Of a DNA stretch of 64,000 nucleotides, positions 19,128-58,277 are shown piece after piece. The notes under the pieces are model-generated. The model had not been told where the DNA came from. It made no database searches and worked only from the letters and a program-made list of their open reading frames with translations. This stretch comes from Ignavibacteriales bacterium. Its GTDB lineage: Bacteria > Bacteroidota > Ignavibacteria > UBA10030 > UBA6906. The DNA lies in contig JBBIRR010000001.1 in assembly GCA_037441705.1 (NCBI GenBank), positions 141,919 through 205,918 on the forward strand, in the 5' to 3' direction. A program made the position numbers and the translations under genes. How positions within the stretch are numbered: the stretch's first letter is position 1; each line of letters starts with the position of its first letter.

Positions 19128-19133
19128 CGCCTG

Positions 19134-22468: not shown

Positions 22469-22520
22469 GATGCCGTGTTTCCATTTGAATTTTTTGTTCG
22501 GGTAATGATATTCAATTCGC

Positions 22521-28267: not shown

Positions 28268-30201
28268 ATTGCCTTCCAATCGCTGGGGGTTGTACCAAGC
28301 GCACGCAACAGCGCAGATTCGAAGTAGGCGAAGGAGTGGACTTCCGCAATGTAGCGCTGGGCTTGTCTTCCGACGCCTTCTTTGTCGAACCTGCCCGTCA
28401 CAACCTGTTCGATTGCTCCGGAGAAGAGGTCAAGCGTTTCGGCATCGCTGCCATCGCCGGACCTCTCGCCTACGAAAATCCCGAATCTCTTTGTCAGGTC
28501 ATCTGGATTGAGCGCGGCGATGCAGGGTTTCGCAAACGCAAATCCCTCCAGCATCGCCACGGGCACCCCTTCGTGGATGCTGGTGTTGATGGTTGCCCAC
28601 GCCGTCTTCAACAGCTTTTCCTTTTCTGCACCATCCACTCTTCCCAGAACTTTCAGATTAGGAATATCCCGATAGCGGGCGAGAATGGGGTTCATGATAT
28701 GAGGATGGTGTGTTGTACCAGCGAGAAAGAAATCGCAGTGCGGGAACCGCCGTGCCAGTTCACAAAACACCCACGGACGCTTGATCGGGTCGAGGCGAGC
28801 AAGAAAAAGGAAACTGGGACGTTCGGAAGACGACGGCGCCCCGGGGGCAACAGGAATCGGCTTGGGCCAATGAAACGCCTCTATGTGATCGAGGCCATAG
28901 AGCCGCCGCGCGATTTCGGCGAGATGGTTCGCCTCTGCGGCAAACAGCACCTTGCGACCGTAGGCGCGGCTGAGGTCCAGCATCCGTCGCAAGGATTCGC
29001 CTCGGCGCTCTCCCTGTTCAATCAACTCGTCTACGGTGGTCGCACCCCATACCTCGATTTCCAGCGCAATCGTCCCAAGCTTGGCCCATACCTCCCGGTC
29101 TTTTGGGTCTTTGATCCAAATAATCCATGGGATGTAAGGAAAATGTTGCAGGTAGAATTCGTAGGATGGATAGTGATCAACACCGACCCAGAGGTTCGTT
29201 CCGCGCCGAACAACGAGCTGTGTACATTGGAGGTGCGCTTTCACGCCCGGCCACCGCGGGAGAAATACAAGCTCGGCATTGTGATATTTCTTCATCGTAA
29301 CCCGGGCAACATCTTTGCGTTCGCAAATGAAAACATCGCCCCGCAGCGGTCCAACATGCGTGTTCATGTGGTCTGTCACGTACTTCAAGGTCATGCCGTA
29401 TCCCCCGAAGGGCATCAAGTCCGGATGACTGAACTCGTCGCTCAAGAACCCGATATGCCACGATCGCCGCTGTCGCCCGATCTGTCGCGCCCTAAAGAGG
29501 AAGCGGCCGGCTTGAACAATCAACAACCCGATCAGTTTCTTCACGTTTTCCTTCATTCCCTCCGATGGTGTTCTCTGAGGAGGGACAACGCCGCGGTGGA
29601 GAAGTTCCTGCCAGGTCACTTTCGCGTTGCCGAGAACCTTCGCCCTCACCGACCGCCTTCCGAGGACGTAGTGCACGGCGAATCGGTGATGTCCATGTTT
29701 GATGACATAGTAGTCGCTGCCGGCAATCTTCGCCACACTCAAGAATTCCTCCGGCACGGACGGATCATTCGAGGCATGTCGGGCAGGCGTTCCGTTCTTT
29801 ATCGCGCGGTAAAGATCGAGAAAGACTTGCGCGCGCTCGATTACGCGTTCCGGCTGTGTAATGCCGAAGAACGAGCCGAAGACCGCAATATCCTCGCAGC
29901 CGTGCTTGTAGTAGTCCGTTTTGGTGAAGCGTTCGAGATCGATCGTTGCTGCGCTCCTGAATTCCCGGAGGAACTTCACATGGGGAGAGTGATCGAGCAG
30001 GCAGTGCTTGCGTTCAGTGAATCCGCCCGTCAACAGTTTGTCAAGAGGGATGCGGCGCGCTGTCAGCCGAAAAACGAATCGGTGCCACATACGTATCCAC
30101 CGCTGAAACGTTTTTGCGTGACCGAGGCGATAGGCAGTTCGCTGCAGCGCCCATATCGGATCAGCCGCTGCTCGCTGCACATATGTGGCAAGTGGTTTCA
30201 T
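28264..30201 (-). CDS. Two-domain protein: uncharacterised ~330-aa N-terminal domain + GT4-like glycosyltransferase C-terminal domain
   Basis: C-terminal segment ...LKTAWATINTSIHEGVPVAMLEGFAFAKPCIAALNPDD resembles the GT-B EX7E region. I cannot assign the N-terminal half. Confidence 0.55.
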   Translation of the reverse strand: MKPLATYVQRAAADPIWALQRTAYRLGHAKTFQRWIRMWHRFVFRLTARRIPLDKLLTGGFTERKHCLLDHSPHVKFLREFRSAATIDLERFTKTDYYKHGCEDIAVFGSFFGITQPERVIERAQVFLDLYRAIKNGTPARHASNDPSVPEEFLSVAKIAGSDYYVIKHGHHRFAVHYVLGRRSVRAKVLGNAKVTWQELLHRGVVPPQRTPSEGMKENVKKLIGLLIVQAGRFLFRARQIGRQRRSWHIGFLSDEFSHPDLMPFGGYGMTLKYVTDHMNTHVGPLRGDVFICERKDVARVTMKKYHNAELVFLPRWPGVKAHLQCTQLVVRRGTNLWVGVDHYPSYEFYLQHFPYIPWIIWIKDPKDREVWAKLGTIALEIEVWGATTVDELIEQGERRGESLRRMLDLSRAYGRKVLFAAEANHLAEIARRLYGLDHIEAFHWPKPIPVAPGAPSSSERPSFLFLARLDPIKRPWVFCELARRFPHCDFFLAGTTHHPHIMNPILARYRDIPNLKVLGRVDGAEKEKLLKTAWATINTSIHEGVPVAMLEGFAFAKPCIAALNPDDLTKRFGIFVGERSGDGSDAETLDLFSGAIEQVVTGRFDKEGVGRQAQRYIAEVHSFAYFESALLRALGTTPSDWKAI

Positions 30202-30227: not shown

Positions 30228-31385
30228 TTAGTTACGTAACACCGAACTGTAGTGTGCTTCCAGCACGTTCAGCTCCTTGTCAATGTCATGGTATGTTTCG
30301 ATAAACGCACGCCCAACTCGTCCCATCTGTGCCCACATCTCCTGGTGGTCGATCAACTGCACGACGTTGGCGGCCATTGCTTCACAATCCCGTTCCGGCG
30401 AGAGGAGAGCACTCTGGCCAGGCACGACAACGTTCGGAATGTCTGCGTGAAGAGTACTGACAACGGGGATTTCCATTGCCTGGGCTTCGAGGATTGTTGT
30501 GGGCGCGCCGCCTTCACTGTTTCCGTCATCAGCGGTAATACTGTGGTGCAGATAGATGTCGGCCTTGCTCATCTCTTCAAGATAGGCATGGTGATTCAAC
30601 GGCCCGAGAAGTCGAACGCAGTCGTGCATGCGATGATCACGGATGAAATTTTCGATTGCCGGTTTCATTACGCCATCACCGACAATGCGGAACTCAAACG
30701 TTTTTCCCTGCTGCCGCACGAGGTCGAGCGCCTTCAGCGCGTATAGGACGCCCTTCTTCTCCACCAGCCGACCGCAAAAGAAAAAAACGGGCGGTTCATT
30801 GTGCTTTTTCGGCATGCGTGCACGAAAGGGGGTTTTGGAAAGCGGTATGCCAATTCTCTGAATACCGACCTTCTCCGCTGAGGCTCCCATGGCAACGAGA
30901 CGTGACTTCATAAACTCTCCCTCTACAAGAAAGCGCGCCCCTTCCTGAAAGAGCCGCTTGTACTTCTCGCGCCATTCTTCTTGCTCAGCATAGCGTGAGA
31001 CGTCGTACCCGTAGAAGCTGGTGATAATCGGGATCCTCTGTTTGCCCCTCAGCTCCAACGCTTGCCAGCCCCGTGGTCCAAAATGAGCATGAATGAGCCG
31101 TACCTCGCGGCGTTTGAGGATTTCTTCACTCAAGGACAATGACCGACCGCTGAGACGGCGACCGATACCGCGCCGAAACCAACGCCAGGAGTATTTTTGA
31201 GGGGCGCGCAAGGGGAGTGTATAGGCGTCACGTTCCGGAATCCGATAGTGCGTCAAAGGACGGAACTCTTCCGCAAAGTACACGTTCCGGAATCGCCTCA
31301 ATCGCAAAAGGAATTCATAGATGAAAGGCTGAATCTCTAGAAAAAAGCAATCGTTCATCTGAGCAACGACGGGCCTGGTGTTCAT
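30228..31385 (-). CDS. GT4-family glycosyltransferase
   Basis: ADIYLHHSITADDGNSEGGAPTTILEAQAMEIPVVSTLHADIPNVV. Confidence 0.7.
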   Translation of the reverse strand: MNTRPVVAQMNDCFFLEIQPFIYEFLLRLRRFRNVYFAEEFRPLTHYRIPERDAYTLPLRAPQKYSWRWFRRGIGRRLSGRSLSLSEEILKRREVRLIHAHFGPRGWQALELRGKQRIPIITSFYGYDVSRYAEQEEWREKYKRLFQEGARFLVEGEFMKSRLVAMGASAEKVGIQRIGIPLSKTPFRARMPKKHNEPPVFFFCGRLVEKKGVLYALKALDLVRQQGKTFEFRIVGDGVMKPAIENFIRDHRMHDCVRLLGPLNHHAYLEEMSKADIYLHHSITADDGNSEGGAPTTILEAQAMEIPVVSTLHADIPNVVVPGQSALLSPERDCEAMAANVVQLIDHQEMWAQMGRVGRAFIETYHDIDKELNVLEAHYSSVLRN

Positions 31386-31391
31386 TCTGCA

Positions 31392-32582
31392 TCACCCATC
31401 TCGTTGAAGGATTGACCGCACCGCACGGATAACATCATCTACGTCTTGATCCGAGAGCTTTGGGGAGAGCGGCAAGGAGACGGTCCGATCCGAAATCCAC
31501 TCCGCATTCGGAAAATCGCCTCGCCGGTAGCCGAAGGTTTTCCGATAAAAGGGATGCAGGTGGAGAGCAATGTAATGCACGCCGACGCCGATCCGTGCCT
31601 CCGTCATCTTCTGAAGAAAGACGCCACGTCGCATTTTGCATCGTTGGATATCCAACAACAGGGTGTAGAGATGGAACGCATGACGTGTGTTCGGCTCAGG
31701 ATCCCGCGGAAGAATCACAGGTAAGTCGGCAAACGCTTCGTTGTAGCGCAGCCAGATCTGTTGCCGCCTCTGCCAGTACCGATTGACACGCGGCAACTGA
31801 TGGATGCCGATGGCCGCCTGGATATCCATCATGTTGTATTTGAATCCGGCATGAACCACCTTGTAGTGCTTGTAGCCTGCATCGCTGAAACGACGCCAGG
31901 CATCTTTGCTCATGCCGTGCAGCGCCAGCACCTTGATGCGCTCCGCATAAGCCTTTCGGCGGGTAATGACCATCCCTCCTTCGCCAGTTACGATGTTCTT
32001 CGTGACGTAAAAACTGAAGCAGCCTAAGTCGCCAAATGTCCCGGCGTGCTTGCCGTGATATTCTGTCTCGATTGCATGTGCGCAATCCTCAATCACTTTC
32101 AATCGGTGTTTGCGCGCCAGAGCCATAATGTCATCCATGTCGCAGGGCCGTCCTGCGAAGTGCACGGGGATGACGGCCCGTGACCGTGAAGTTATCTTGC
32201 GCGCAAGATCATCAGGCGAGATGTTCTGCGTGTCCCGTTCACAGTCCACGAAGACGGGTCGGCCGCCTGCATGGATCACCGCATTGGCGGTTGCGGCAAA
32301 CGTCATTGCCGGCACAAGCACCTCATCGCCTGGCCGCACTCCGATGGCAAGAAGCGAGAGATGCAGGGCAGCCGTGCACGAGTTGAGCGCAAGGCCGTAT
32401 GGACTTCCCTTGTATTGCGCAAACATTTCCTCAAACTGCTTGACCTTGGGTCCGGTTCCGAGCCATCCCGACTGCAATGAGCGCGTAACTTCTGCAATTT
32501 CCTCAGCCTCTATGAGCGGATTCCCAAATATCAGGAACGTGCTTCTTTTTGTTGGCGGCGTTGGTTGTGCTCGACCTGACAT
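31392..32582 (-). CDS. DegT/DnrJ/EryC1/StrS-family PLP-dependent sugar aminotransferase
   Basis: FLIFGNPLIEAEEIAEVTRSLQSGWLGTGPKV...DCAHAIETEYHGKHAGTFGDLGCFSFYVTKNIVTGEGG (Schiff-base Lys region). ATG 32582 has AGGAG 5 nt upstream. Confidence 0.8.
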   Translation of the reverse strand: MSGRAQPTPPTKRSTFLIFGNPLIEAEEIAEVTRSLQSGWLGTGPKVKQFEEMFAQYKGSPYGLALNSCTAALHLSLLAIGVRPGDEVLVPAMTFAATANAVIHAGGRPVFVDCERDTQNISPDDLARKITSRSRAVIPVHFAGRPCDMDDIMALARKHRLKVIEDCAHAIETEYHGKHAGTFGDLGCFSFYVTKNIVTGEGGMVITRRKAYAERIKVLALHGMSKDAWRRFSDAGYKHYKVVHAGFKYNMMDIQAAIGIHQLPRVNRYWQRRQQIWLRYNEAFADLPVILPRDPEPNTRHAFHLYTLLLDIQRCKMRRGVFLQKMTEARIGVGVHYIALHLHPFYRKTFGYRRGDFPNAEWISDRTVSLPLSPKLSDQDVDDVIRAVRSILQRDG

Positions 32583-32595
32583 GGAAACTCCTGAA

Positions 32596-33897
32596 TCAAT
32601 GAACCTCAACGGTTTCGGGCACACTCCACTGATAGTCAAAATGGAGATACCCTTTAGCCCACGTATAATGGCCTGCACTTCTTTGGTTGCCGGAGGTAGG
32701 ACGAATGCTGAAGAAGGCAGCCTCCGGGAGATGGTCCTGCCGCGCTCCATCTCCGAAGAGACGCAGCATGAGGACATACTCGCCTGAACGCAAGTAGTTC
32801 GGATCGAATCGAAGCTGAATGCTGTAGCGACCGGGATCGAACCGATGAGAAAACTCCGGCGAGGCGACGGTAAAGAGTTTGATCTCCTCTTTCAGTGTCT
32901 TGATCGTGCAGCCCAGCTGCAGATGCTCCAGCGGTTCGTCCACACGAAAGCCGAGTTCGACAACGAACGGCTCCTGTTCATAGACTGAAGGCGTTTCTTC
33001 TCCCTTACTATTGACAAGGCGAACCCATTCGTACCGTGCCTTGGTGCCGACAATACTCTCATCGCGTTCAAGGTCAATCAGAGAGGCTCTGCTCTTTCGC
33101 TCGACCTGTGCCTCTATGTGCTGGACATACTGCCGCACCACCTCATTCGTAGGACCAGAGGCAACAATCTGCCCCGCTTCGAGCATGAAGCTACGCTGGG
33201 TTAGGTTGAGAATGGAGGACATGTTATGACTGACGAACAACAGTGTGCGTCCTTCACTGGCAACGCTCTCCATTTTTCCGAGGCATTTCCGTTGAAAAGC
33301 AAGATCGCCAACGGCCAGCACTTCATCCACAATGAGAATCTCCGGCTCGAGGTGTGCTGCCACGGCGAACGCCAGCCGCACATACATGCCGGACGAGTAC
33401 CGCTTCACGGGCGTGTCGAGGAATTTCTCTACCTCCGCGAACGCAACAATCTCATCGAACTTCTTCTTGATCTCGGCCTTGCTCATTCCTAATACAGCAC
33501 CATTCATGAAGATGTTCTCGCGTCCGGTCAATTCAGGATGAAAGCCCGTTCCAACTTCCAGCAGACTGGCGACGCGTCCTTTGATGCGGATGCGTCCCGT
33601 GGTCGGCTCGGTGACGCGGCTGAAAATTTTCAGCAGCGTGGATTTGCCGGCACCGTTCCTGCCGATGACGCCGATCCGCTCGCCCTGCCGGATTTCCAGC
33701 GATATGTTCTTCAAAGCCCAGAATTCTTCCCGCGTGGAATACATCCCGCCTGCGTGCTGCGGCGAACGAACTTTGCGCAACAGCGTCTGCGCTGCAGCCG
33801 AGAGGGCATCCTTGAGTGTCGGATTCCGGTTCTGCTGACGGTGGACAAGGATATATTTTTTTCCCACGTTCTCGACGCAGATAACGGGTTCAGCCAT
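32596..33897 (-). CDS. wzt: ABC transporter ATP-binding protein, Wzt/TagH-type polysaccharide exporter with extra C-terminal domain
   Basis: Walker A GRNGAGKST, signature YSSGMYVRLAFA and Walker B ILIVDE. About 190 extra C-terminal residues, as in Wzt carbohydrate-binding domains. Confidence 0.8.
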   Translation of the reverse strand: MAEPVICVENVGKKYILVHRQQNRNPTLKDALSAAAQTLLRKVRSPQHAGGMYSTREEFWALKNISLEIRQGERIGVIGRNGAGKSTLLKIFSRVTEPTTGRIRIKGRVASLLEVGTGFHPELTGRENIFMNGAVLGMSKAEIKKKFDEIVAFAEVEKFLDTPVKRYSSGMYVRLAFAVAAHLEPEILIVDEVLAVGDLAFQRKCLGKMESVASEGRTLLFVSHNMSSILNLTQRSFMLEAGQIVASGPTNEVVRQYVQHIEAQVERKSRASLIDLERDESIVGTKARYEWVRLVNSKGEETPSVYEQEPFVVELGFRVDEPLEHLQLGCTIKTLKEEIKLFTVASPEFSHRFDPGRYSIQLRFDPNYLRSGEYVLMLRLFGDGARQDHLPEAAFFSIRPTSGNQRSAGHYTWAKGYLHFDYQWSVPETVEVH

Positions 33898-33953: not shown

Positions 33954-35435
33954 TCAAGGACTTGGCAGCGGGAGACGTCCGGAAACTGCCACAAGAGCAT
34001 ACAAAAAGCAGATGATAATGCCTGTTGGCAACATCACCCAGGCCCAATGGTGCCGGTGTTTGAAGCCCACGATTCCCTTCATGCTCAGAGGCAAAAGCAA
34101 TGGAATCACATCAATAGCATAGAGCATTCGTGCGGCAACCGCCATGTGGATGAGCGTAAAAGTCCCAACAGCCACAACAATCGGCCACGCGCGCGTCGGT
34201 AGGGCACGCGCACCACCGAGAAGGGCAAAGGCAAGAAACAGCCCGTGCTCCAGCATTAGAAAATAGTCGGAGAAGCTGGCTGCTTGACCGTAGGCCTCAG
34301 GAACTTTCCAGTTGAACCACAGCGGCAGGGCACGGTAGAAGGAAAGGAGAACGTACTCTCCGGGATGCGAGAGGATAATGCGCGCAGATTCCTTCTGCAA
34401 CAGGCGGTCGAATTCTGCTTCGTTTTCGCGCCCCGTGAGTTCTGGATGTTTTGACACAAAGGCCAACAGCGCACGCTCGGTCCCCGGGCCCGCCACAAAC
34501 GGTACGAACTTGCCCTCTTCCAAGAAATGGTTCTGACGATAGAGATTATACCCAAACAACGTTGTCCCAATAACCGGACGGCCGAACGCGAGATAGTTCC
34601 TCGCAATCCAAGGCAGTTGGACGGCAGAGAAGACAAGCAGGAATAAACCAACGGCACGGGCGTTCATCGCTGCACGTTGGTTGTTCAACGCCGGTTTCTT
34701 CCATGCAATCACAGCCAACCCCGTCAGCCCCAGAGCCACAGCCATGAATGCAGAGCGAGACAACACCGCCAGGCCCAGCATCAGGCCCGAGGCTGCCCAC
34801 CAGCCGGTGCCGCCATCAGACCAAGCACGCGCGAAGAAGGCAAGCGACCATACGGCACACGCAGCAGCGATAAGGTCAACCTCCTTGGCGGAGACTTCTC
34901 GAATTGCCGGAAGGTACACAACCCAGAACAACGCGGAGATCATCGCAAGCCGGTTGTCCTCAAGCCTCCGTGCAAGAGCGACGATGCCAAAGAGGGTTAT
35001 GATCCGGATAGCGATGTGGAACGCGCCGAGCGCAAAGTACGAACCGCCTGCAAGCAGACCGATCCCGGCAAAGAGCAAGACGGGCACAGGCTCTCGTGCC
35101 GCGCTCACCTTATTGCTCGGACTGCTGAACGGGAAATACGATGGCGCAATGAAACTGTATCCTTCGCCCTTCCGCAGTGACTCGGCAATATCCCACGACA
35201 TTCCGGTAAACGATATTGCTGAATGCCGTGAATGCCAAACATGATAACCATCGATCGCCACAATCATCAACGCCAGGGCGAGGAGGATGGTTATGGAAGA
35301 GCGATCGCCCCGAAGCAGGAATTGCTCCTTCACCATCCTCACAACACCTTCTATCCGTTTTCCAAGGTTCTGACTCATAAGAGAAAGAAGTTGAGCTTTT
35401 TGTGTGTCAGACGTGTGACGCCCACGAGTTGCCAT
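33954..35435 (-). CDS. GT-C-fold polytopic membrane glycosyltransferase (ArnT/PMT-like)
   Basis: More than 10 predicted TM helices with a periplasmic-loop-rich architecture. Sits between wzt and wzm. Family call comes from topology and resemblance only; the start could be 35336. Confidence 0.45.
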   Translation of the reverse strand: MATRGRHTSDTQKAQLLSLMSQNLGKRIEGVVRMVKEQFLLRGDRSSITILLALALMIVAIDGYHVWHSRHSAISFTGMSWDIAESLRKGEGYSFIAPSYFPFSSPSNKVSAAREPVPVLLFAGIGLLAGGSYFALGAFHIAIRIITLFGIVALARRLEDNRLAMISALFWVVYLPAIREVSAKEVDLIAAACAVWSLAFFARAWSDGGTGWWAASGLMLGLAVLSRSAFMAVALGLTGLAVIAWKKPALNNQRAAMNARAVGLFLLVFSAVQLPWIARNYLAFGRPVIGTTLFGYNLYRQNHFLEEGKFVPFVAGPGTERALLAFVSKHPELTGRENEAEFDRLLQKESARIILSHPGEYVLLSFYRALPLWFNWKVPEAYGQAASFSDYFLMLEHGLFLAFALLGGARALPTRAWPIVVAVGTFTLIHMAVAARMLYAIDVIPLLLPLSMKGIVGFKHRHHWAWVMLPTGIIICFLYALVAVSGRLPLPSP

Positions 35436-35447: not shown

Positions 35448-36272
35448 TCAGATGACATCGGCAAATGTTCGCTCCGTTCGGCGGAAGTACCACATGCCCG
35501 AAAGCATCAACAGAGCGACAATCGAAATCGAAAGCACGAGCCCCGGCAGAAACAACTGCTGCGCTCCACCCAGGAGCGACCAGCGGATGCCGTCAATCCC
35601 CGCTGCCATTGGATTGACGTAGTACAGCAATCGCCATTGTTCCGGGATGACGCTGCTGGTGAACCCCACAGGCGAGACGTACACGCCAAGCTGAATGACA
35701 AATGGAATGATGTGCTGAAAATCCCGATACTTCACATTCAGCGCAGCGAACCACAGGCCCAGGCCGAGCGACGCGCCGAGTGTGAAAAGCAGAAACAGCG
35801 GAAACAGCACCACGCGGCCATCGGGAACGACGCCGTACCATCCCATCAGTCCCGCCAGCATCAGTGCGGAAATGCCGAAGTCAACCAGACTTGTGATGAT
35901 GGCACTGAGCGGTATGATGAGACGCGGGAAATACACTTTCGAGATCATTCCTGCGTTCTTGGTCATGCTGTAGCTGCATTCGGACAGCCCGTTGGCAAAA
36001 AGTTGCCATGGAAGAATGCCGGCGAAAACCAGGAGAGGATACGGGACTCCTTCGGAAGGAAGCCCGGCGATTCTGCCGAAGATGATCGTAAAGATGACCA
36101 TTGTGAGCGCCGGACGCACAAACGCCCATGCAACGCCGATCACCGTCTGCTTGTAGCGGACGAGAATGTCGCGCCAGGCGAGAAAGAGGAACAGTTCGCG
36201 GTAGCGCCAGATATCGCGCCAGTACTGTGCTTCCGTCCTTCCTGCTTCGATGATGACTTCGGGTGTCTCCAC
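35448..36272 (-). CDS. wzm: ABC-2-type polysaccharide exporter permease (Wzm/KpsM/TagG)
   Basis: Six TM helices. N-terminal WRYRELFLFLAWRDILVRYKQTVIGVAWAF is the characteristic ABC-2 signature region. Confidence 0.8.
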   Translation of the reverse strand: METPEVIIEAGRTEAQYWRDIWRYRELFLFLAWRDILVRYKQTVIGVAWAFVRPALTMVIFTIIFGRIAGLPSEGVPYPLLVFAGILPWQLFANGLSECSYSMTKNAGMISKVYFPRLIIPLSAIITSLVDFGISALMLAGLMGWYGVVPDGRVVLFPLFLLFTLGASLGLGLWFAALNVKYRDFQHIIPFVIQLGVYVSPVGFTSSVIPEQWRLLYYVNPMAAGIDGIRWSLLGGAQQLFLPGLVLSISIVALLMLSGMWYFRRTERTFADVI

Positions 36273-36309: not shown

Positions 36310-37416
36310 TCACAGGGATCCGCTTCGAAGACGCGCCATCCGACCGTGATGAATTCTGTCGTACAACCGGCGCGGGCGTGCGTTTTCTCCTGTCGGAGGT
36401 TCCTGCTGAGCTGTGTGCGGCTGCGCGGCAGGTTCGGAATTCCCTTCTTTCTTTGTCAGAGCACCACGCAACGAACGCCACCCGCGGTCGTCCTGCAACA
36501 ATCGTGATGTCACCGGATGGGTAATGAACCGAATCAGTGCCTTCAGCAGCGTGAGATGGAACTCGGAGGACACAATCCGCAACAGGTCGGCGGCAAAGCT
36601 CCTCCACAGATACACAAGCGTCACTCCGTACTGACTCTGCCGGTTACTCTTGCCCGTAAGATATAAATAGAAGTAACTCTTGGAATATCGTGTGATAGAT
36701 GCCGGCACCCGGGGATTGCGATGACGAAGTTCCGTCGTAAAAGCCGCAAAGGCCCGCTCCATCCGCCGGTGGTTTGCCGAGAGGCTGGTCAACACTTCGC
36801 GGTAGCCGACGAGAATCTTCGGCACAAGCCGATACTGAAAGCGTTCGGCAATCCGAAGGTACATATCCCACTCCTCGCACGGTGTCGTGGCGCCGTTGTA
36901 CAGGCCCACAGCATCGAAGCAAGACCGACGGATCAACGCGCAGCTTCCGTTGCCGAGAAAGTTGGAGAACATGAGGTCGGCGACCACATTACCCTCATAT
37001 CTGTGCGTGATGGGAACAATGGGCCGATCATCTTCATCAATAATCATGGACCAGCAATAGATGAGGCCCACGCTGTCCTCGCAGTCCTGCATTACCCTCA
37101 CCTGCTCGCTCAGTTTTTCCGGATACCACACGTCGTCCGAATCGAGCGGGGCAATAAGGTCGCCCTTCGATTGCTGAATGCCGAGGTTGCGTGCCGTGGC
37201 GACGCCGCCGTTGTCTTTCCGCAGCAGAACGACGCGCCCATCCTGCTGGCAGAATGACTCAACGATCTGCGGCGTCTCATCGGTCGAGCCGTCATCCACC
37301 ACGATGATTTCCATGTTGGGATACGTCTGCCCCACCGCCGAACGCAGCGTGCGCTCGATGAAGCGTGCCGCGTTGTACGAAGGAATGACAACAGAAACCA
37401 AGGGATGTGTGGGCAC
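36310..37416 (-). CDS. GT2-family glycosyltransferase
   Basis: VSVVIPSYNAARFIERTLRSAVGQTY...IIVVDDGSTDETP...LDSDDVW. Confidence 0.8.
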   Translation of the reverse strand: MPTHPLVSVVIPSYNAARFIERTLRSAVGQTYPNMEIIVVDDGSTDETPQIVESFCQQDGRVVLLRKDNGGVATARNLGIQQSKGDLIAPLDSDDVWYPEKLSEQVRVMQDCEDSVGLIYCWSMIIDEDDRPIVPITHRYEGNVVADLMFSNFLGNGSCALIRRSCFDAVGLYNGATTPCEEWDMYLRIAERFQYRLVPKILVGYREVLTSLSANHRRMERAFAAFTTELRHRNPRVPASITRYSKSYFYLYLTGKSNRQSQYGVTLVYLWRSFAADLLRIVSSEFHLTLLKALIRFITHPVTSRLLQDDRGWRSLRGALTKKEGNSEPAAQPHTAQQEPPTGENARPRRLYDRIHHGRMARLRSGSL

Positions 37417-37515: not shown

Positions 37516-40191
37516 TCATCGAACGAGAACAAGCTTACGTGTGGCAACGAAACTGCCTGCTCGGAGACGATAGTAGTATACACCGCTGGCAAGCCCGTCA
37601 CCATGAAAAACCACTTGATGATACCCGGCTTCCTGATGCTGCGCCACGAGGCGTGCCACCTCACGGCCGAGGCCATCATAGACAACCAGCGAAACGACGC
37701 TTGCGCGCGGCAGACCGAACCGAATGAGCGTTGTCGGGTTTGCCGGATTGGGATAGTTTTGCAGCAGTTCGAATGCCTTCGGTGTTTCTGCAGCCTCGGC
37801 CACGTCAGTCAGATGAACACGAAAGTTCCGCACCTCACCGAACTGGCCCCATCCTGCTTCGTTCCTCGCTCGCACCCTCCACCAATAACTTCTCGAGTTG
37901 GCAAGTTGCCGCGCAGTCGTTGTCGTATCAACCAGCAAGGAGTCGACAAGCGGCGAAGAGAAGAGCGAGTCTGTGGCCAGTTCAAGCCAGTAGCGCACAA
38001 CGTCCGGCCGACTTTGACGCCAGATGAGACGGACCGTGTCCGTACCGATCAGCGCATTGGGCGCAGGCGAAACCAGCGCCACCGGCTCGGGCAGCTGAAC
38101 GAGCGTCCGGAAACTCCAGCGATCCGACCACGGACTTGTCCCACCGGCGTTCGTTGCATTAACCCTCCAGTAGTACCACTGGCCGCGCTGCAATCCTGCA
38201 ACCGTGCGAGCTGTGTCGCTCAACGTGGAGTCATCGACCTCGAGCGCCGTGAACAGCGAATCGGCCGCCACCTGAAGGCGATACCGATCAGCCTCCGCGC
38301 TTCGATGCCAGACGACAGGAAGCGTCGTCGGGTGACCGACAGAGAGATTGGCCGGTGAAAGCAATTGCGGCGCAAGGGGCGCTGCAAGGACGGTCATGAA
38401 ATTCCACCACGGACTGAATTCTCCCCACCCCATATCGTTCCTCGCACGTGCGCGCCAGTAGTAGCGCGTGTTGTTCGCCAGTTGGCTCACAGTCGTGGTC
38501 GTGTCGGTGAGAGATGTATCTCGCACGGCAGGCTGCGCGCTCGTGTCGGTTGAAAGCTCAAACCAGTATCCGCTTACGTTCATTGGTCCATCACTCTCCC
38601 ACCATAGTTTTTTTGTTGGTGAAATGACGGACGTTTGGTCCGCGCCGCGATGCCACATGAACGTCACGCTCGTCGGCTGGTTCAGAGCATTGTTGGGAGG
38701 GCTGAGCAAAGCAACCTGCATCGGAACGCCAAGCGTCTTGAAGCTCCGCCATGGAGAAAACGCGCTGGTGCCCGCGCCGTTCCTCGCATTCACCTTCCAA
38801 TAGTACCACGTCAACGGCTGAAGATTCTCCAGTTGATAGGTCGTGTCGGTGATCAGCGAATCATTGACAACGAGTTGGATGAACGACGTGTCGAGTGCAA
38901 CCAGCACGCCATAGCTCGAGGCGGTGGACGACGTGCGCCAGAGAAGTGCTGTTGACGGTGGGTGACCGACGGACCCATTCAGCGGCGACACAAGCTCCGG
39001 GGCACTCGGCGGCAGAATCGGAACGCTGTCCAGCGGATTGAAGAAGTTCCCCGTCTGCAGGAACAGGGTGAGCGTTCTGAGGCTCCAGTTGTAGTAGTTG
39101 CCGTTCACAAAGGGCGGGACGGTTGCGACGTTATCGTCGTAGGCCGAATCGCAAAATGCCTGATACGCCGGAGTGGTCCCCATCGAGCCGGCGGCAAACG
39201 GCCCGACGAACACGTTGATGTGCTGCTGCCCGATGGGAGTGCCGTCAAGGTAGTATCCCTCGCGGATATTGACTGAACCAATCCCGCGTGCGAAGTCGGA
39301 TATTTTTTGCAGGAACACTCTCGCCCGGTTGTCGCCAAACCACACGTAGTCAACGGCAATGCGCCAGGGCGTGCGGGTCGCGTCGTAGTAATAATAGTAG
39401 GCGAACCCGGGTGCCGGCTGCCCGCTCGCCTGACACCAGTCGGGCACGAGACCGGTGTTGACATGCGCGGCGCGCTGGAGAATCTCATAACACTTCGTCA
39501 CAACGCTATCCCATCCCGGATTGCCCGTGACGGCACGAAAGGCTCGATAGTACGCAGGAGCAAAGTAGGATGGATTGAGAACGTGCGACCCGCCCCAGTA
39601 ATCGCCGGGCTTCAGCACGTACGTGTTGGGTTCAACTTCGTACTGGTAGATGCGATTGATTTGGGTGATTGCATGCTGAAGATAATTGATCGCGCCGGTA
39701 CTGCCCCACTGCTTATGTGCCAGCAGCAAAGCAAAGGCAGCATCTTCATCGGCGTCGGTTGCTCCGCCATCACCCAGAATCTGACCGCAATTACTGCCGA
39801 TCCACCAGTGCATCATGCCGCGCGGGTCCATGTGCGCCATGTAGTAACGCCACAGATCATCGAACAACGCGCGATCGTTGTAGTTCACCGACAGCAGCAT
39901 GCCGTAGGCAATCCCCTCCGAGTACGTCGAACTCATATCATTGAAGAGCACGCGGCGGTACCCGCATGCCCCGCTGGTGGTCACATAGTTGTTTTTCCAG
40001 GCAAGGTACGACGATTCGGCAGGAACATGGCTTCGCGCGGTGGGCATGATGCCGTACGGGTACGTGGTGTTCTGGGGAAAGGGGTATCGCGCCTGCGCGT
40101 GTGCCGGCTCTACAGCGATGAAGCAGAGAAGCACAGCCTTGCATGCCGCAAGCAGTATTACGTCCGACGCGCGCGTAGGTTCACCTCTCAT
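37516..40191 (-). CDS. Secreted GH8 glycoside hydrolase with about five FN3-like repeats and T9SS (Por) C-terminal sorting domain
   Basis: Signal peptide. GH8 signature ATDADEDAAFALLLAHKQW and TYSEGIAYGML. Repeated P.L.SP.N...YYW.V.A.N..G.S.FS modules. C-terminus LLQNYPNPANPTTLIRFGLP...VYDGLGREV...SGVYYYRLRAGSFVATRKLVLVR matches the Por_Secre_tail consensus. Confidence 0.85.
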   Translation of the reverse strand: MRGEPTRASDVILLAACKAVLLCFIAVEPAHAQARYPFPQNTTYPYGIMPTARSHVPAESSYLAWKNNYVTTSGACGYRRVLFNDMSSTYSEGIAYGMLLSVNYNDRALFDDLWRYYMAHMDPRGMMHWWIGSNCGQILGDGGATDADEDAAFALLLAHKQWGSTGAINYLQHAITQINRIYQYEVEPNTYVLKPGDYWGGSHVLNPSYFAPAYYRAFRAVTGNPGWDSVVTKCYEILQRAAHVNTGLVPDWCQASGQPAPGFAYYYYYDATRTPWRIAVDYVWFGDNRARVFLQKISDFARGIGSVNIREGYYLDGTPIGQQHINVFVGPFAAGSMGTTPAYQAFCDSAYDDNVATVPPFVNGNYYNWSLRTLTLFLQTGNFFNPLDSVPILPPSAPELVSPLNGSVGHPPSTALLWRTSSTASSYGVLVALDTSFIQLVVNDSLITDTTYQLENLQPLTWYYWKVNARNGAGTSAFSPWRSFKTLGVPMQVALLSPPNNALNQPTSVTFMWHRGADQTSVISPTKKLWWESDGPMNVSGYWFELSTDTSAQPAVRDTSLTDTTTTVSQLANNTRYYWRARARNDMGWGEFSPWWNFMTVLAAPLAPQLLSPANLSVGHPTTLPVVWHRSAEADRYRLQVAADSLFTALEVDDSTLSDTARTVAGLQRGQWYYWRVNATNAGGTSPWSDRWSFRTLVQLPEPVALVSPAPNALIGTDTVRLIWRQSRPDVVRYWLELATDSLFSSPLVDSLLVDTTTTARQLANSRSYWWRVRARNEAGWGQFGEVRNFRVHLTDVAEAAETPKAFELLQNYPNPANPTTLIRFGLPRASVVSLVVYDGLGREVARLVAQHQEAGYHQVVFHGDGLASGVYYYRLRAGSFVATRKLVLVR

Positions 40192-40335: not shown

Positions 40336-41514
40336 TTACGGGCGTGGATTTCGTGGCCTAAATTCAGCGACGCGCTTGCGAGAAAAGCCGAAGGAATTCT
40401 TGATGATGGCCACGATTCGCTGTGCCGCTTTCCCATCGCCGTAGGGGTTGACAGCGTTTGCCATCCTGCGGTACTCACGCTGATCGTTCAGCAGTACAGT
40501 TGCTGCGCGGAAAATTCGCTCTTCGTTCAGCCCTACCAGACGTGCCGTACCGAATTGAATGGCCTCAGGACGCTCTGTCACCTCTCTCAGCACCAGCACC
40601 GGCTTTCCCAGCGCCGGCGCCTCTTCCTGTATCCCGCCTGAATCGGTGATGATCAGATGAGCCTTCGCCATGAGATGGATGAATTCCAGATAGCCCAACG
40701 GCTCCAGAAGGCAGACGTTGGAGAGGCCGCCGAGAATCGGAACAACAACCTCGCGCACGACCGGATTGAGATGAACCGGAAAGACGAAGAGGTCCTCCGG
40801 ATGACGCGACGCGAGCTTTTTCACTGCACGGCATGCGCCGCGCATCGGTTCCCCCCAATTCTCACGCCGGTGCATGGTCAAGAGAACAATCCGACGCGGC
40901 AATTGCATGATACGTGCAACGGTCCGTGCATGCGGCTTGAAGGGCCGTTGAAGCGCAATCCGTAGCGCGTCGATGACAGTATTGCCGGTGACAAAAATCC
41001 GCTCGGGTGGATAATGCTCGGCGAGCAGTGCGTCCTTTGCCGCTTGCGTCGGGGCGAAGTGCAGGTCGGTCACCGAACTTGTAAGCCTGCGGTTGATTTC
41101 TTCCGGAAACGGATGCGCCTTGTCGTTCGTTCGTAAGCCGGCCTCAACATGTCCAACGGGAATGCGGCGATAGAAGGCCGCCAGGCTTCCCACGAACGTC
41201 GTGGTCGTATCCCCCTGGACGAGAACCATGTCCGGCTGTTCCTTTTCCAGAACGGCATCCAGGGCCGACATCGTTCTGCTGGTGAGCGTCGCAAGAGATT
41301 GCCGCGGCTGCATCAGGTTCAAATCGTGTTCGGGCCTGATGGCAAATACGTCCAACACCTGATCAAGCATGTGGCGGTGCTGCGCGGTCGCAATCGTTAC
41401 CACACGAAACAACCGCGCTTGGTTCCTGAGGGCGAGAATGACGGGAGCTAATTTGATGGTATCCGGGCGCGTGCCGAAAATGACTGCAATGCGTTTGCGC
41501 TGTTTCCGTTTCAT
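40336..41514 (-). CDS. wecB: UDP-N-acetylglucosamine 2-epimerase (non-hydrolysing)
   Basis: IAVIFGTRPDTIKLAPV...HVEAGLRTNDKAHPFPEEINRRL...GNTVIDAL. Start at ATG 41514; the upstream extension translates a tandem DNA repeat (HHFNHHFN) and is rejected. Confidence 0.85.
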   Translation of the reverse strand: MKRKQRKRIAVIFGTRPDTIKLAPVILALRNQARLFRVVTIATAQHRHMLDQVLDVFAIRPEHDLNLMQPRQSLATLTSRTMSALDAVLEKEQPDMVLVQGDTTTTFVGSLAAFYRRIPVGHVEAGLRTNDKAHPFPEEINRRLTSSVTDLHFAPTQAAKDALLAEHYPPERIFVTGNTVIDALRIALQRPFKPHARTVARIMQLPRRIVLLTMHRRENWGEPMRGACRAVKKLASRHPEDLFVFPVHLNPVVREVVVPILGGLSNVCLLEPLGYLEFIHLMAKAHLIITDSGGIQEEAPALGKPVLVLREVTERPEAIQFGTARLVGLNEERIFRAATVLLNDQREYRRMANAVNPYGDGKAAQRIVAIIKNSFGFSRKRVAEFRPRNPRP

Positions 41515-41593
41515 GAGGTTCCGAGAGTATCCAGGCGCGGACACCAAGAAAGTACGTAATTCGGCAACGTCTTCCAACGCTCTGTGTGCTCTC

Positions 41594-41629
41594 TGGTTGA
41601 AATGATGGTTGAAATGATGGGTCAATTTC
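41594..41629. promoter_or_regulatory. Tandem 12-nt direct repeats in divergent intergenic region (candidate regulator binding sites)
   Basis: TGGTTGAAATGA occurs twice perfectly (41594-41605, 41606-41617) plus a degenerate third copy TGGGTCAATTTC. Located between the divergently transcribed wecB polysaccharide operon and the PAS histidine kinase. Confidence 0.4.
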
Positions 41630-41689: not shown

Positions 41690-43777
41690 ATGCGTCACAG
41701 GACAACCAAGCCTCCCCTCAAAATTGCACTGACATACGCAATCGTGGCCAGCCTCTACATCATGATCTCCGACAAGCTCGCCGGCACACTCGCCTCCACG
41801 ACCGAAGCGCTCACCGGGATCTCCCAAATCAAAGGACTGATGTTTGTCGCCCTCACCAGCCTGATGCTCTACCTGATGGTCCGGCGACTTACCAACGCCC
41901 AGCACCGCGTTCAAGAGGAATTGGTGAAGAGCAACGAACGCCTCGCGCTTATCACCTCAACGACGCCGGTCTTTCTTTTTGAGATTGATCGAACAGGAAC
42001 CATCCTTCACGCAACGAAGCCGTTCCAAGGAATACCGACGACGGATATCCTCAGCACGAACTTTTTCTCGTTCCTCCCCGAGCATCGGCGCGGAGCGCTC
42101 GCCGCGGTTATCGAAGCGACGTGCGCCACAGCGACAGCGCAGTCGTTCGAGTACACGACACGGACAGACGGACAGGAGCCGAGAACCTTTTCTCTGACGA
42201 TTGCCCCACTTCATCACAGCAACAACTCGCCTCACCTGCTGGTGACCGTCCACGACATCACCGACCAGAAACAGAAAGAGGATGCACTCCGACAATCGCA
42301 TCAACGCTTCGAGTTAGTTTCCCGCGCCTCCAACGACACCATCTGGGATTGGGATATCGTCTCGGGCAAGCTCTGGGTCAGCGACGCGTTCTTTCAAAAA
42401 TACGGCTATCCCCGAACCGCATCGCTGACGCTCAGTGATTGGGATTCACACATCCATCCGGAGGATCGCGAGCGCGTGGTGAAAAGCCGGCTCACCGCGG
42501 TGCAGCAGAGAGCAACTTCGTGGGAGGAAGAATTCCGCTTCGTGCATGCGAACGGATCAACCAGTTACGTTGTGGATCGCGGGTTTCTCGTGTTCGACGA
42601 TCAGGGCACGCCGGTGCGGATGATCTGCTCCATGGTGGATGTGACAACGTTGAAGCTCGCAGAGCTGGACCAGCGGTACTTAGCGGAAGAGCGGCAAAAG
42701 CTGCTGCATCAATTGCGCCTGCAGTTCGAGCGCATGCCGATCGGGTACGTCCTGGCCGACAGAAACTTCCGCATCGTCGAGTGGAATCCTTCCTGTGAGA
42801 AAATCTTCGGCTACACACGCGCGGAGGTGATCGGGCGGTCACCGTTCGATGTTGTGATCCCCTCCGTGCTCAAGCCCTTCATTCATGAGTTCATCGAACG
42901 GCTCAAGACGGGAAAAGAGACGCTGACCGCCATCAACGAAAATCTCACGAAAGACGGACGTACGATCCTGTGCGAATGGTTCGACACGCCGCTGTTTGAC
43001 GAGTACGGTAACTACACCGGCATGATCGCGATGGTGCAGGATATTACCGAGCGTCGGCATGCAGAGGAGGAGCTGAAGAAATCGAACATTCAGTTACGCA
43101 ACCTTTCGGCCTACTTGCAGACGGTTCGCGAGCAGGAACGTAAACACATCGCGCGCGAGATACACGATGAACTGGGCCAGGAACTGACGGCGCTGAAGAT
43201 GCAGGCAGCACTGATGCAGAAAGCGATCGCCAAGCTGGATGCAGCCGCGCCGAAGTCCGAACTTCTGGACCTCACGCACTCGCTCACCGTCATGGCCGAC
43301 ACGGCGATCAAGACCGTTCGCCGCATCGCGACAGAGCTGCGCCCCGATGTGCTGGACAAAGTGGGGCTGATCGACGCGCTGAAATGGCAGGCGCAGGAGT
43401 TCGAGAAGCGAACCGGCGTCCAGTGCATCTTTCGCTCGCGCGTGGACGAGTGGGACTTCCCCGACGACGTGGCAACGGCGCTCTTTCGGATTTTTCAGGA
43501 GGCACTCACCAACGTCTCGCGCCACGCTCGCGCAACGCGCGTTGCCGCCGAGCTTTCGCTGCGCGAGGATTGGGTGGACTTCCGCGTGGAAGATAACGGC
43601 CGAGGCATCAGCAAAGAACAGATCGAGAACACGTCGTCGCTCGGACTGATCGGCCTCGTCGAGCGCGCAAAACTCCTGGGCGGAACCGCCACGATTGTCG
43701 GCGTGCCTGGCGCGGGCACCACCATCAACGTGCATATTCCTCTCCCATCATCGAACGCGGAGAACGGACAGTCATGA
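41690..43777 (+). CDS. Membrane PAS-domain sensor histidine kinase (HisKA_3 / NarX-type)
   Basis: N-terminal TM region and three PAS-like modules. H-box HIAREIHDELGQELTALKMQ (HisKA_3 type). HATPase_c G-boxes (DNGRGI; GLIGLVERAKLLGG). Confidence 0.8.
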   Translation: MRHRTTKPPLKIALTYAIVASLYIMISDKLAGTLASTTEALTGISQIKGLMFVALTSLMLYLMVRRLTNAQHRVQEELVKSNERLALITSTTPVFLFEIDRTGTILHATKPFQGIPTTDILSTNFFSFLPEHRRGALAAVIEATCATATAQSFEYTTRTDGQEPRTFSLTIAPLHHSNNSPHLLVTVHDITDQKQKEDALRQSHQRFELVSRASNDTIWDWDIVSGKLWVSDAFFQKYGYPRTASLTLSDWDSHIHPEDRERVVKSRLTAVQQRATSWEEEFRFVHANGSTSYVVDRGFLVFDDQGTPVRMICSMVDVTTLKLAELDQRYLAEERQKLLHQLRLQFERMPIGYVLADRNFRIVEWNPSCEKIFGYTRAEVIGRSPFDVVIPSVLKPFIHEFIERLKTGKETLTAINENLTKDGRTILCEWFDTPLFDEYGNYTGMIAMVQDITERRHAEEELKKSNIQLRNLSAYLQTVREQERKHIAREIHDELGQELTALKMQAALMQKAIAKLDAAAPKSELLDLTHSLTVMADTAIKTVRRIATELRPDVLDKVGLIDALKWQAQEFEKRTGVQCIFRSRVDEWDFPDDVATALFRIFQEALTNVSRHARATRVAAELSLREDWVDFRVEDNGRGISKEQIENTSSLGLIGLVERAKLLGGTATIVGVPGAGTTINVHIPLPSSNAENGQS

Positions 43778-44406
43778 TCAAAATCCTCATCGCCGACGAC
43801 CATCCGATGGTTCGGGAGGGGCTGAAGAAGACGCTGAGCGAGGAACCGGATATCCACCTGCTGGGCGAGGCACGCAACGCACAGGAAACGCGCGCGCTGG
43901 TTGCCGAACATGACGCCGATGTGCTGGTGCTGGATATCTCGATGCCCGGCACAAGCGGCCTTTCGCTCCTGCAGGACGTCCTGCGCATGAAGAACGACCT
44001 GCGTGTGCTGATCCTGAGCATGCACCCCGAGGAACGCTTTGCCATCCGCGCACTCAAGGAAGGCGCCTCCGGTTATCTCACGAAAGAATCCGCGCCGGAG
44101 GAACTTGCGCGGGCAATCCGCAAAATTGCCGCCGGCCGACGCTACATCAGTCCCACACTTGCCGAGAAGCTCGTCGAAGAGCTTCAGTCGGATAGCACCG
44201 CTCTTCCTCATGAACTCCTCTCCGAGCGCGAGTACGAAATCTTCCTCATGATTGCCGGCGGCAAAACCGTAAGCGCTATCGCGGAGGAACTCTCGTTGAG
44301 CGTTGCGACCGTGAGCACACATCGCCGACGCATCCTCGAGAAAATGAACCTTTCGAACAACGCAGAAATCGTGCAATACGCTTACGCCAACAAGCTGATG
44401 CAGTAA
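43774..44406 (+). CDS. NarL/LuxR-family response regulator
   Basis: REC (ILIADDHPMVREG...VLVLDISMPG) plus LuxR HTH (LSEREYEIFLMIAGGKTVSAIAEELSLSVATVSTHRRRILEKM). ATGA overlap with the kinase. Confidence 0.85.
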   Translation: MIKILIADDHPMVREGLKKTLSEEPDIHLLGEARNAQETRALVAEHDADVLVLDISMPGTSGLSLLQDVLRMKNDLRVLILSMHPEERFAIRALKEGASGYLTKESAPEELARAIRKIAAGRRYISPTLAEKLVEELQSDSTALPHELLSEREYEIFLMIAGGKTVSAIAEELSLSVATVSTHRRRILEKMNLSNNAEIVQYAYANKLMQ

Positions 44407-44862
44407 GACCCGCCGCAACACGTCACCCCTGTTGGTTCCTTCTGCTGCAACGAGTTATCAGCGAAAGTATGACAGTACTTTCATACCCCCGCGAATTTTG
44501 CTTCCGTGTGTTCCATCGTATCTTTCTGTTGCCATCATCCGCGTCCGGGAGACCGCCGCGGCCCCCCGATGATGCGCAACAAAACAGTCAGGGAGAGAAA
44601 AATCTTTGCAACACAACAAGCAGCACAACACACAGGGACGAGACGGGGCCGCGCGCGCGGTTCGTATGAAGAGAATAGGTAAACTCTGTCCTCCGTTCGA
44701 TGCCTCGTACACAATCCTGAGCCGCACGGAAGCATTGTGCAGGAACGGAGCGGCCCTCTGGTTCCTCGCGCAGAGAGCAAGCAGCTCTACACAACGTCCT
44801 TCACGCAGCTTGCTCATTCCGCCCTTCCCGCCAGAAACACCATGCACGCGTAAGGAGGGGCA

Positions 44863-48950: not shown

Positions 48951-48959
48951 GCAGGTGAC

Positions 48960-50144: not shown

Positions 50145-50169
50145 TTCGTGAACTAATGATGATTGCCCT

Positions 50170-58205: not shown

Positions 58206-58277
58206 TCCATTACATCCCTGTGGTGGACGGAGGCTTCAAGTGAGAATCTATTGCGGACCGGAAATCCGGAGTTGCAA

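Follow-up and report, generated by a model that had tools for sequence, protein, structure and literature searches.

We analysed a 64,000-nucleotide (nt) stretch of the genome of an Ignavibacteriales bacterium (contig JBBIRR010000001.1, positions 141,919 to 205,918; this whole stretch is hereafter called the window) that encodes two proteins of glycoside hydrolase family 8 (GH8), GH8-A and GH8-B. As a first-pass annotation had indicated, both open reading frames (ORFs) are present on the minus strand, and we found that their products are true paralogues with different accessory domains (Table 1). GH8-A joins a propeller related to the photosystem II factor Ycf48 to its catalytic domain, whereas GH8-B carries fibronectin type III (FN3)-like modules and a type IX secretion system (T9SS) sorting domain. 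The earlier annotation overlooked that the two genes are linked by a glycan operon. What is new here is a lineage-restricted fusion together with a conserved multi-GH8 arrangement in a glycan operon that depends on an ATP-binding cassette (ABC) transporter.

By BLASTP, GH8-A and GH8-B are 61% identical over 391 amino acids (aa; E = 3e-165). Over the core, from YPFPQN to GNFF, the identity is 65.4% (227/347 aligned positions), at the low end of the ~65-70% first reported. The SEGI(G/A)YGML and ATDADEDAAFALLLA motifs, which had also been pointed out, are indeed common to both copies. The Glyco_hydro_8 family (PF01270) matches residues 323-666 of GH8-A (E = 2e-68, 231.4 bits) and residues 38-379 of GH8-B (E = 7.7e-68, 229.5 bits), in each case against a cutoff of 24. 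We found no third GH8 in the 64 kb window, and Pfam recognised no cellulose-binding module in either protein.

The top match to GH8-A by sequence in the PDB was the cellulosomal endoglucanase CelA (1CEM; phmmer, E = 4.6e-89). An AlphaFold model of GH8-A, built from an input alignment of 57 sequences, had a mean predicted local distance difference test (pLDDT) score of 90.7 and a predicted template modelling (pTM) score of 0.67, indicating that the orientation of its two domains is uncertain. When the model was compared with known structures using Foldseek, its GH8 domain aligned with 1CEM at a template modelling (TM) score of 0.92, a root-mean-square deviation (RMSD) of 1.8 Å and 44% identity. 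As modelled, GH8-A has the (alpha/alpha)6 barrel fold, and the 65% identity of the cores predicts the same fold for GH8-B. When aligned by phmmer with 1CEM and its E95Q mutant (1KWF), the CelA catalytic acid, E95, falls at E378 of GH8-A and E92 of GH8-B, the active-site D152 at D431 and D146, and the catalytic base, D278, at D558 and D270. The residues at these three positions are invariant in 9/9 A-type sequences. We take the GH8a (CelA-like) subgroup to be defined by these features, that is, the acid Glu, the Asp152 position and a base Asp at the D278 position.

We also considered whether either protein could be BcsZ, the GH8 enzyme of cellulose synthesis operons. The GH8 domain of GH8-A resembles BcsZ (3QXF) less closely, with a TM score of 0.77, an RMSD of 3.5 Å and an identity of 22% (Foldseek). 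The BcsZ equivalog NF008305 scored 79.6 bits with GH8-A and 61.1 bits with GH8-B vs a cutoff of 299, and the context contains neither BcsA nor BcsB. Because of these scores, far under the cutoff, and of this context, we rejected this identity and conclude that GH8-A and GH8-B are CelA-like (GH8a-type) GH8 enzymes, not BcsZ orthologues. Both are predicted to be inverting endo-beta-1,4-glycanases of the CelA kind with their catalytic residues intact.

The N-terminal half of GH8-A had been described as a six-bladed propeller. The best-fitting domain family is PF14870 (Ycf48/PSII_BNR; E = 6.4e-33, 114.7 bits, cutoff 27), with weaker BNR and Sortilin-Vps10 matches in Pfam. Six canonical Asp-boxes start at residues 67, 108, 149, 190, 231 and 272, a period of 41 residues, and a seventh, degenerate one (TKNAGGC) occupies residues 313-319. 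Since the AlphaFold model likewise contains seven blades, the original count was one short. That the region folds as a propeller was borne out: it matched the Ycf48 structures 5OJR and 2XBG in the PDB at target TM scores of 0.75-0.79, with RMSDs of 3.4-5.2 Å and 20% identity (Foldseek). However, it scored only 100.2 bits with the NCBIfam Ycf48 equivalog NF010237, far below the cutoff of 326, and so it is a member of the Ycf48 domain family but not Ycf48 itself. No linker separates the propeller from the GH8 domain, and in an alignment of A-type sequences the junction reads as an invariant motif, NAGGC-V-x-FPFPQN. None of the Foldseek matches to the model was a PDB chain spanning both domains.

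GH8-A begins with a predicted Sec signal peptide: a basic n-region precedes a hydrophobic helix (residues 9-21), and pLDDT in the AlphaFold model is low at residues 23-31. The A-Q-W junction at its end is kept in most orthologues. Predicted cleavage is between LHA and Q in GH8-A and between AHA and Q in GH8-B; signal peptidase I substrates of Bacteroidota typically have a glutamine at +1. As first noted, GH8-A has no T9SS tail: searches with Pfam and NCBIfam and of the downstream DNA gave neither a tail nor a remnant of one. All A-type orthologues terminate ~5-20 residues past the GH8 domain, and the nine A-type sequences aligned show no T9SS tail, no convincingly placed lipobox and no other known export signal. 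Their conserved cysteines are compatible with the periplasm and with the outside alike.

GH8-B is built differently. Pfam fn3 matches it in three stretches (E = 7.5e-22), as do related Ig/FN3 families. Alignment with MAFFT, by which we set the module boundaries, resolved four FN3-like modules of two subtypes in the order a-b-a-b, and not the roughly five modules proposed earlier; self-BLAST of the C-terminal region detected no repeats. The C-terminus had been called a textbook Por_Secre_tail. This stands with respect to the NCBIfam model TIGR04183, which scored 35.6 bits at residues 813-889 against a curated cutoff of 23, but not with respect to PF18962 (Por_Secre_tail) itself, which reached 23.9 bits and so fell under its gathering cutoff of 27. 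TIGR04183 was above its cutoff in GH8-B only, not in GH8-A. The NCBI name of the GH8-B orthologue P0014 is 'T9SS type A sorting domain-containing protein', and the same tail is present on many proteins of relatives. Scanning the ORFs of the 64 kb window with Pfam yielded no genes for T9SS components or for attachment of its cargo. The idea that the two proteins have different destinations is a reasonable inference from a T9SS tail on GH8-B only and a Sec-type signal peptide as the sole export signal on GH8-A; judging from these signals, GH8-A is probably kept inside the cell envelope and GH8-B is probably at the cell surface.

The propeller-GH8 fusion is rare, as its unfamiliarity to the first-pass annotation had hinted. 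In a database of 5.8 billion proteins, PF14870 and PF01270 occurred together in eight clusters at 90% identity (P0001-P0008), all 59-98% identical to GH8-A; every other match listed contained one of the two domains, never both. When 1.84 billion 50%-identity representatives were searched exhaustively with phmmer, one contiguous match across both domains, P0008, was returned among the best 150. Three loci in 185,579 species-representative genomes matched through both domains, with the labels 'uncultured Chlorobi bacterium', 'Ignavibacteria bacterium' and 'Chitinophagales' (the last a short fragment); the other loci listed matched the GH8 part only. Three proteins were rejected as independent fusions: P0125 (3,282 aa) combines two GH8 domains with FG-GAP, BACON, Big_7 and FN3 domains, and P0221 and P0207 contain the propeller only. 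At the depth of these searches, we conclude that the fusion is confined to one uncultured lineage of the Fibrobacterota-Chlorobiota-Bacteroidota (FCB) group.

We found no published description of a Ycf48-like propeller-GH8 fusion in the literature on Ycf48-like domains and glycoside hydrolases or on GH8 and Ignavibacteria. The separate parts are abundant, with Ycf48-like propellers bearing T9SS tails very frequent in this phylum and GH8 proteins that carry FN3 modules, a T9SS tail or both common in it. GH8 is also joined to another propeller type, FG-GAP, in P0033 and P0125. Thus, the fusion is rare and lineage-restricted, but its component parts and general logic are already known. In the 'Ignavibacteria bacterium ERB_28_1' metagenome-assembled genome (MAG; L011, 9672-11826), the propeller-GH8 gene is broken into three overlapping ORFs; because coverage of this contig is ~5x, the split is probably an assembly error and not a real pseudogene.

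The first-pass annotation had suggested that the duplication was recent, but a tree built from 34 GH8 cores by neighbour joining (100 bootstraps) indicates otherwise. A-type and B-type cores form separate clades (99/100 and 73/100, respectively); B groups with a third type, C, which consists of GH8 and a T9SS tail, and with P0010 in 75/100 bootstraps, and the whole A/B/C group was recovered in 100/100. The branching order inside the A and B clades corresponds: P0007 (A) and P0014 (B), from one genome, are basal in their respective clades, and P0002 (A) and P0015 (B), from one contig, are sister to the window's copies. In addition, both A and B are encoded by genomes with A cores that share only 67-69% identity with the window's A. 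We conclude from these three observations that the duplication, as read from these sequences, predates the radiation of the lineage, so that the split is no younger than the lineage itself.

Core identities are 66.8-98.9% within A, 73.1-100% within B and 58.1-66.6% between A and B. Pairs of A and B within one genome are 62.0-65.4% identical compared to 58-67% for cross-genome pairs. Because same-genome identity is not elevated, gene conversion between A and B is unlikely and was rejected. P0010, a GH8-only protein with its own signal peptide, was considered as an A type lacking the propeller, since it is 71.6% identical to the A core; this was rejected as well, as it fell in the A clade in just 11/100 bootstraps.

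GH8-B and GH8-A are the second and the last genes, respectively, of a co-directional block of 16 genes (~22 kb, 41625 to 19284, all on the minus strand), in which neighbouring genes are separated by short gaps or overlap. At the distal end, the stop codon of the last family 4 glycosyltransferase (GT4) and the start codon of GH8-A share one base (TGATG). An ABC-2 permease and an ATPase with a Wzt C-terminal domain are present, with eight glycosyltransferase (GT) genes between and around them, and therefore the operon encodes an ABC-transporter-dependent (Wzm/Wzt) glycan pathway. Pfam scans of 52 ORFs of the window gave no member of the cellulose synthase (BcsA) or BcsB families. The GT2 proteins of the operon are short, and the models for the cellulose synthase catalytic subunit gave 31.9 and 22.2 bits vs cutoffs of 699 and 992. 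Likewise, the 64 kb window contains no SusC/SusD, sugar transporters, beta-glucosidases or other degradative carbohydrate-active enzymes (CAZymes). Promoter and terminator scans at the locus gave nothing above shuffled controls, and a sigma-70-like site upstream of GH8-B (40309-40281) is a consensus match only.

Table 1. Features of the two GH8 genes and of the glycan operon, in window coordinates
Feature	Coordinates	Strand	Description	Basis
GH8-A gene	19284..21341	minus	685 aa: signal peptide, Ycf48-like propeller and GH8, no T9SS tail	ORF, Pfam, AlphaFold
GH8-A predicted Sec signal peptide	21246..21341	minus	residues 1-32, ...PRLHA/QW	read from sequence
GH8-A propeller	20385..21245	minus	residues 33-319, seven-bladed, Ycf48-like (PSII_BNR)	PF14870, Asp-boxes, model, Foldseek
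GH8-A catalytic domain	19329..20384	minus	residues 320-671	phmmer vs PDB, Foldseek
GH8-B gene	37516..40191	minus	891 aa: signal peptide, GH8, four FN3-like modules and T9SS type A C-terminal domain	ORF, Pfam, NCBIfam
GH8-B catalytic core	39040..40086	minus	residues 36-384	tblastn of A core vs window, PF01270
GH8-B four FN3-like modules	37804..39003	minus	residues ~397-486, 495-600, 607-694, 703-796	Pfam, module alignment
GH8-B T9SS type A C-terminal sorting domain	37519..37758	minus	residues 812-891, NYPNP...KLVLVR	TIGR04183
WecB-like UDP-GlcNAc 2-epimerase	40336..41625	minus	first operon gene; same place in L007, L088, L089	PF02350, E = 9e-122
GT2	36310..37416	minus	directly downstream of GH8-B	PF00535, E = 6e-39
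Wzm ABC-2 permease	35448..36272	minus		PF01061
PMT_2-like GT-C membrane protein	33954..35435	minus		
Wzt ATPase	32596..33897	minus	with Wzt_C domain	PF00005 + PF14524
DegT aminotransferase	31392..32777	minus		
GT4	30228..31385	minus		
GT	28264..30201	minus	645 aa	
GT2 (second)	27362..28279	minus		
Carbohydrate esterase family 4 (CE4) deacetylase	26337..27614	minus		
GT4	25075..26469	minus		
GT4	23885..25078	minus		
SGNH/GDSL-like protein	22521..23888	minus		
GT4 (last)	21341..22639	minus		
PAS histidine kinase and LuxR-type response regulator	41690..44406	plus	divergent from operon head	

The arrangement is not peculiar to this genome. The co-directional position of the GH8 genes among glycan genes is conserved in at least six independent contigs, with synteny in L002-L005, L007, L088 and L089, and the recurring layout is WecB > (GH8-C) > GH8-B > GT2 > Wzm > PMT_2 > Wzt > GTs > GH8-A. 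In the 85%-identical relative (L005/L007), the order from WecB to A is the same, minus the DegT and SGNH-like genes. The operon heads of L088 and L089 read WecB > GH8-C > GH8-B > GT2 > Wzm > ... > Wzt; L089 belongs to the same genome as L003, on which the A-type tail of the operon sits. Basal relatives (L001, L009) have a compact form, GH8-C > GH8-B > GT2 > GH8-A, and the window's GT2 downstream of GH8-B is orthologous to the one lying between GH8-B and GH8-A in L001 (61% identity, full length). The 1-nt overlap between the upstream GT4 stop and the A-type start recurs in L002, L004 and L005; the corresponding spacing is 2 nt in L003 and 47 nt in L001.

Several relatives have three GH8 paralogues per operon. 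The third, GH8-C (~596 aa, GH8 plus T9SS tail), lies between WecB and GH8-B in L088 (6165-7955) and L089 (8001-9791), and is found in L001 at 4120-5907 and in L009 at 4096-5883. It is absent from the window and L007, and the 144-nt spacer between WecB and GH8-B in the window holds no remnant of it. P0083, a more remote T9SS-tailed GH8 from Ignavibacteria (~47% identity), has no glycan-synthesis genes adjoining, and hence the linkage to the glycan operon is specific to the A/B/C clade. The GT cassette between the GT2/export module and GH8-A is variable, as the 98%-identical L002 has methyltransferases and extra GT2 genes there; by analogy, this variability between relatives resembles that of O-antigen and capsule loci. 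At the edge of this variable cassette, 77 nt past the GH8-A stop, is a tRNA-Pro(GGG) gene (19133-19207, minus strand; ARAGORN; Rfam RF00005, 62.5 bits), which might mark a recombination or integration hotspot.

The PAS kinase and LuxR-type regulator that diverge from the operon head are kept beside it in the window, L007, L088 and L089, making the pair a candidate regulator of the operon. They begin a run of signalling genes (41690-51387, plus strand) that also encodes a receiver-PAS protein, a 962-aa kinase with five PAS domains, and receiver-HDOD and receiver-HD proteins; L007 and L089 keep the first four genes of the run next to the operon, and L088 keeps part of them there. Elsewhere in the window, three tandem HSP20 genes (14334-15728) lie beside a Lon protease gene (11783-14173), all on the minus strand (11783-15728), and L002 is arranged likewise. 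Genes for a Uma2-family putative endonuclease (56064-56618, plus strand) and a '23S rRNA-intervening sequence protein' (58179-58718, plus strand) flank an aldehyde dehydrogenase gene and appear unrelated to the GH8 finding.

Of all the clues to the function of GH8-A and GH8-B, the conserved operon position is the strongest. There is ample precedent for glycoside hydrolases encoded within exopolysaccharide operons, among them BcsZ, PslG, PelA and PgaB (PMC4928890, PMC9075953, PMC9894940, PMC5933820). We therefore lean, with modest confidence, towards the view that the operon encodes GH8-A and GH8-B as endo-glycanases for processing the cell's own polymer. In the scheme that we infer, the GT2 and GT4 enzymes would assemble the polymer on a lipid carrier and Wzm/Wzt would export it; its probable modifiers are the SGNH-like protein, the CE4 deacetylase and the DegT aminotransferase. 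GH8-A, because it has a Sec signal and no T9SS tail, would be retained in the periplasm, where it could trim or clear polymer chains, and its rigidly attached propeller may serve as a binding or docking module. GH8-B would be exported by the T9SS, displayed away from the cell on its four FN3 spacers, and could cut the same polymer outside, controlling chain length, release or remodelling. The GH8-C of relatives would, like GH8-B, be exported by the T9SS.

Several points weigh against this interpretation. The catalytic domain is closest to CelA, a true cellulase, and the BcsZ equivalog scores are far below the cutoff. WecB, DegT, CE4 and the many GT4s suggest an amino-sugar-rich heteropolysaccharide, which one would not readily expect a CelA-like beta-1,4-glucanase to cut, although GH8 does include chitosanases. 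In L001 and L009, the GH8 trio adjoins a single GT2 only and no export cassette, showing that these genes can exist without the full pathway next to them. For a periplasmic GH8-A, the pointer is its missing T9SS tail, and so that location is presumptive. The part given to the propeller is a guess, as the interdomain geometry of the model is uncertain (pTM 0.67). Finally, multimodular T9SS GH8s in cellulolytic Bacteroidota have been tied to growth on cellulose (PMC6247017).

The last point leads to what we regard as the most serious competitor, although we consider it unlikely: that the enzymes are ordinary endoglucanases that serve nutrient acquisition from external cellulose, mixed-linkage glucan or chitosan. 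The T9SS would then secrete one of them, the other would act in the periplasm on imported oligosaccharides, and their position in the operon would be a historical accident. This reading would account for the 44% identity to CelA, the nearest characterised relative, in the structural alignment and for the trio lacking an adjacent export cassette in L001 and L009. Related GH8s were also common in cellulolytic Acetivibrio, Ruminiclostridium and Flavobacterium in our genome search, and T9SS-tailed GH8s, with extracellular and periplasmic isoforms, occur in cellulolytic Cytophaga and Sporocytophaga (PMC6247017). However, an accident of position fits poorly with co-directional placement conserved in the independent contigs and with the 1-nt overlap of GT4 and A-type genes in the window and three relatives. 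Moreover, SusC/SusD proteins, sugar transporters, beta-glucosidases and other degradative CAZymes were not found in the 64 kb window, nor was a recognised cellulose-binding module in either protein.

A second alternative keeps the operon but moves GH8-A. Here, the propeller would route GH8-A to the outer membrane or the outside, so that both enzymes would be extracellular and differ in their tethering. The Ycf48-like propellers of this phylum lie overwhelmingly in secreted multidomain proteins with T9SS tails, which made up most matches in two protein searches, and this argues that the module normally works outside the cell. Nevertheless, all nine A-type sequences are devoid of a T9SS tail, a convincing lipobox or another known export signal, and we regard an extracellular GH8-A as improbable. 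Least credible, to the point that we give it hardly any weight, is an operon that makes an anchor glycan or lipopolysaccharide (LPS) for T9SS cargo, like the A-LPS of Porphyromonas, with the T9SS-tailed GH8s linked to or remodelling the anchor and a periplasmic GH8-A editing its polymer ahead of attachment. Genes for T9SS cargo (B and, in relatives, C) do sit inside an O-antigen-like Wzm/Wzt operon with DegT and WecB, and A-LPS synthesis in P. gingivalis requires the DegT-family aminotransferase PorR. A review connects the T9SS with glycosylation in Cytophaga (PMC11611037). However, DegT is absent from the otherwise matching L005/L007 operon, T9SS machinery and attachment genes were not found in the window, and the case is purely circumstantial, with nothing to tie this glycan to cargo anchoring.

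If GH8-A and GH8-B do process the cell's own polymer, then the practice of placing a hydrolase in a synthesis operon extends to an ABC-transporter-dependent pathway and to an uncultured FCB lineage. The known hydrolase-bearing operons, for cellulose, Pel, poly-N-acetylglucosamine (PNAG), alginate and Psl, are synthase-dependent or Wzy-dependent. It would also mean that labour is divided between a periplasmic enzyme and a T9SS-exported one. A bolder version, which we think doubtful, is that the propeller is a glycan-binding or machinery-docking domain holding a periplasmic GH8 at the Wzm/Wzt route, in what would be the first described ABC-transporter-dependent pathway with two- or three-tier hydrolases. 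If so, it would provide the first functional handle on non-photosynthetic Ycf48-like propellers, which abound in these bacteria, where no function is known for them. The fusion also sets such a propeller beside a known catalytic domain in a defined pathway, offering an entry to what these propellers bind, provided that the two enzymes do act in this operon. Should they be no more than cellulases, what remains is a MAG lineage with a rare arrangement of domains.

Comparison with known systems places each part of the locus. CelA (Cel8A) of Clostridium/Acetivibrio thermocellum (1CEM, 1KWF) has the same (alpha/alpha)6 fold and catalytic residues as those assigned to GH8-A and GH8-B. However, it is a cellulosomal enzyme of a Gram-positive host that acts on plant cellulose and is encoded outside glycan-synthesis operons; in place of its dockerin, GH8-A has the Ycf48-like propeller, and GH8-B has FN3 modules and a T9SS tail. 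Cytophaga hutchinsonii CHU_1075 and Sporocytophaga myxococcoides MYP_2156 resemble GH8-B in architecture, combining GH8 with Ig/FN3-like modules and TIGR04183-type tails, and these organisms also pair extracellular and periplasmic GH8 paralogues (PMC6247017). They differ in that their GH8s are linked to growth on cellulose and have not been reported in glycan-biosynthesis operons, and none described in that work has a Ycf48-like propeller (PMC6247017). The photosystem II assembly factor Ycf48/HCF136 (2XBG, 5OJR) belongs to the same Pfam family as the GH8-A propeller and is likewise seven-bladed. Yet the two are just 20% identical, and the GH8-A propeller, an N-terminal module of a glycoside hydrolase with no photosynthetic context, falls within a large group of secreted FCB-bacterial proteins termed 'YCF48-related'.

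With respect to the operon, the nearest parallel within the family is BcsZ/CMCax (3QXF, 1WZZ), a periplasmic GH8 encoded in a polysaccharide-making operon and thought to process its own polymer, which is the logic that we propose for GH8-A. The identity is ~22%, and those systems are synthase-dependent with a single GH8, whereas the pathway here is ABC-transporter-dependent, has two or three GH8s and lacks BcsA/BcsB. Beyond GH8, PslG (GH39), PelA (GH166), PgaB (GH153) and the lyase AlgL are degradative enzymes that are encoded with the machinery and act on a self-made polymer (PMC4928890, PMC9075953, PMC9894940, PMC5933820). These belong to other families and folds, occur as a single hydrolase per system, and none is exported by the T9SS; the CE4 deacetylase of the window's operon is nevertheless a feature that parallels PelA and PgaB.

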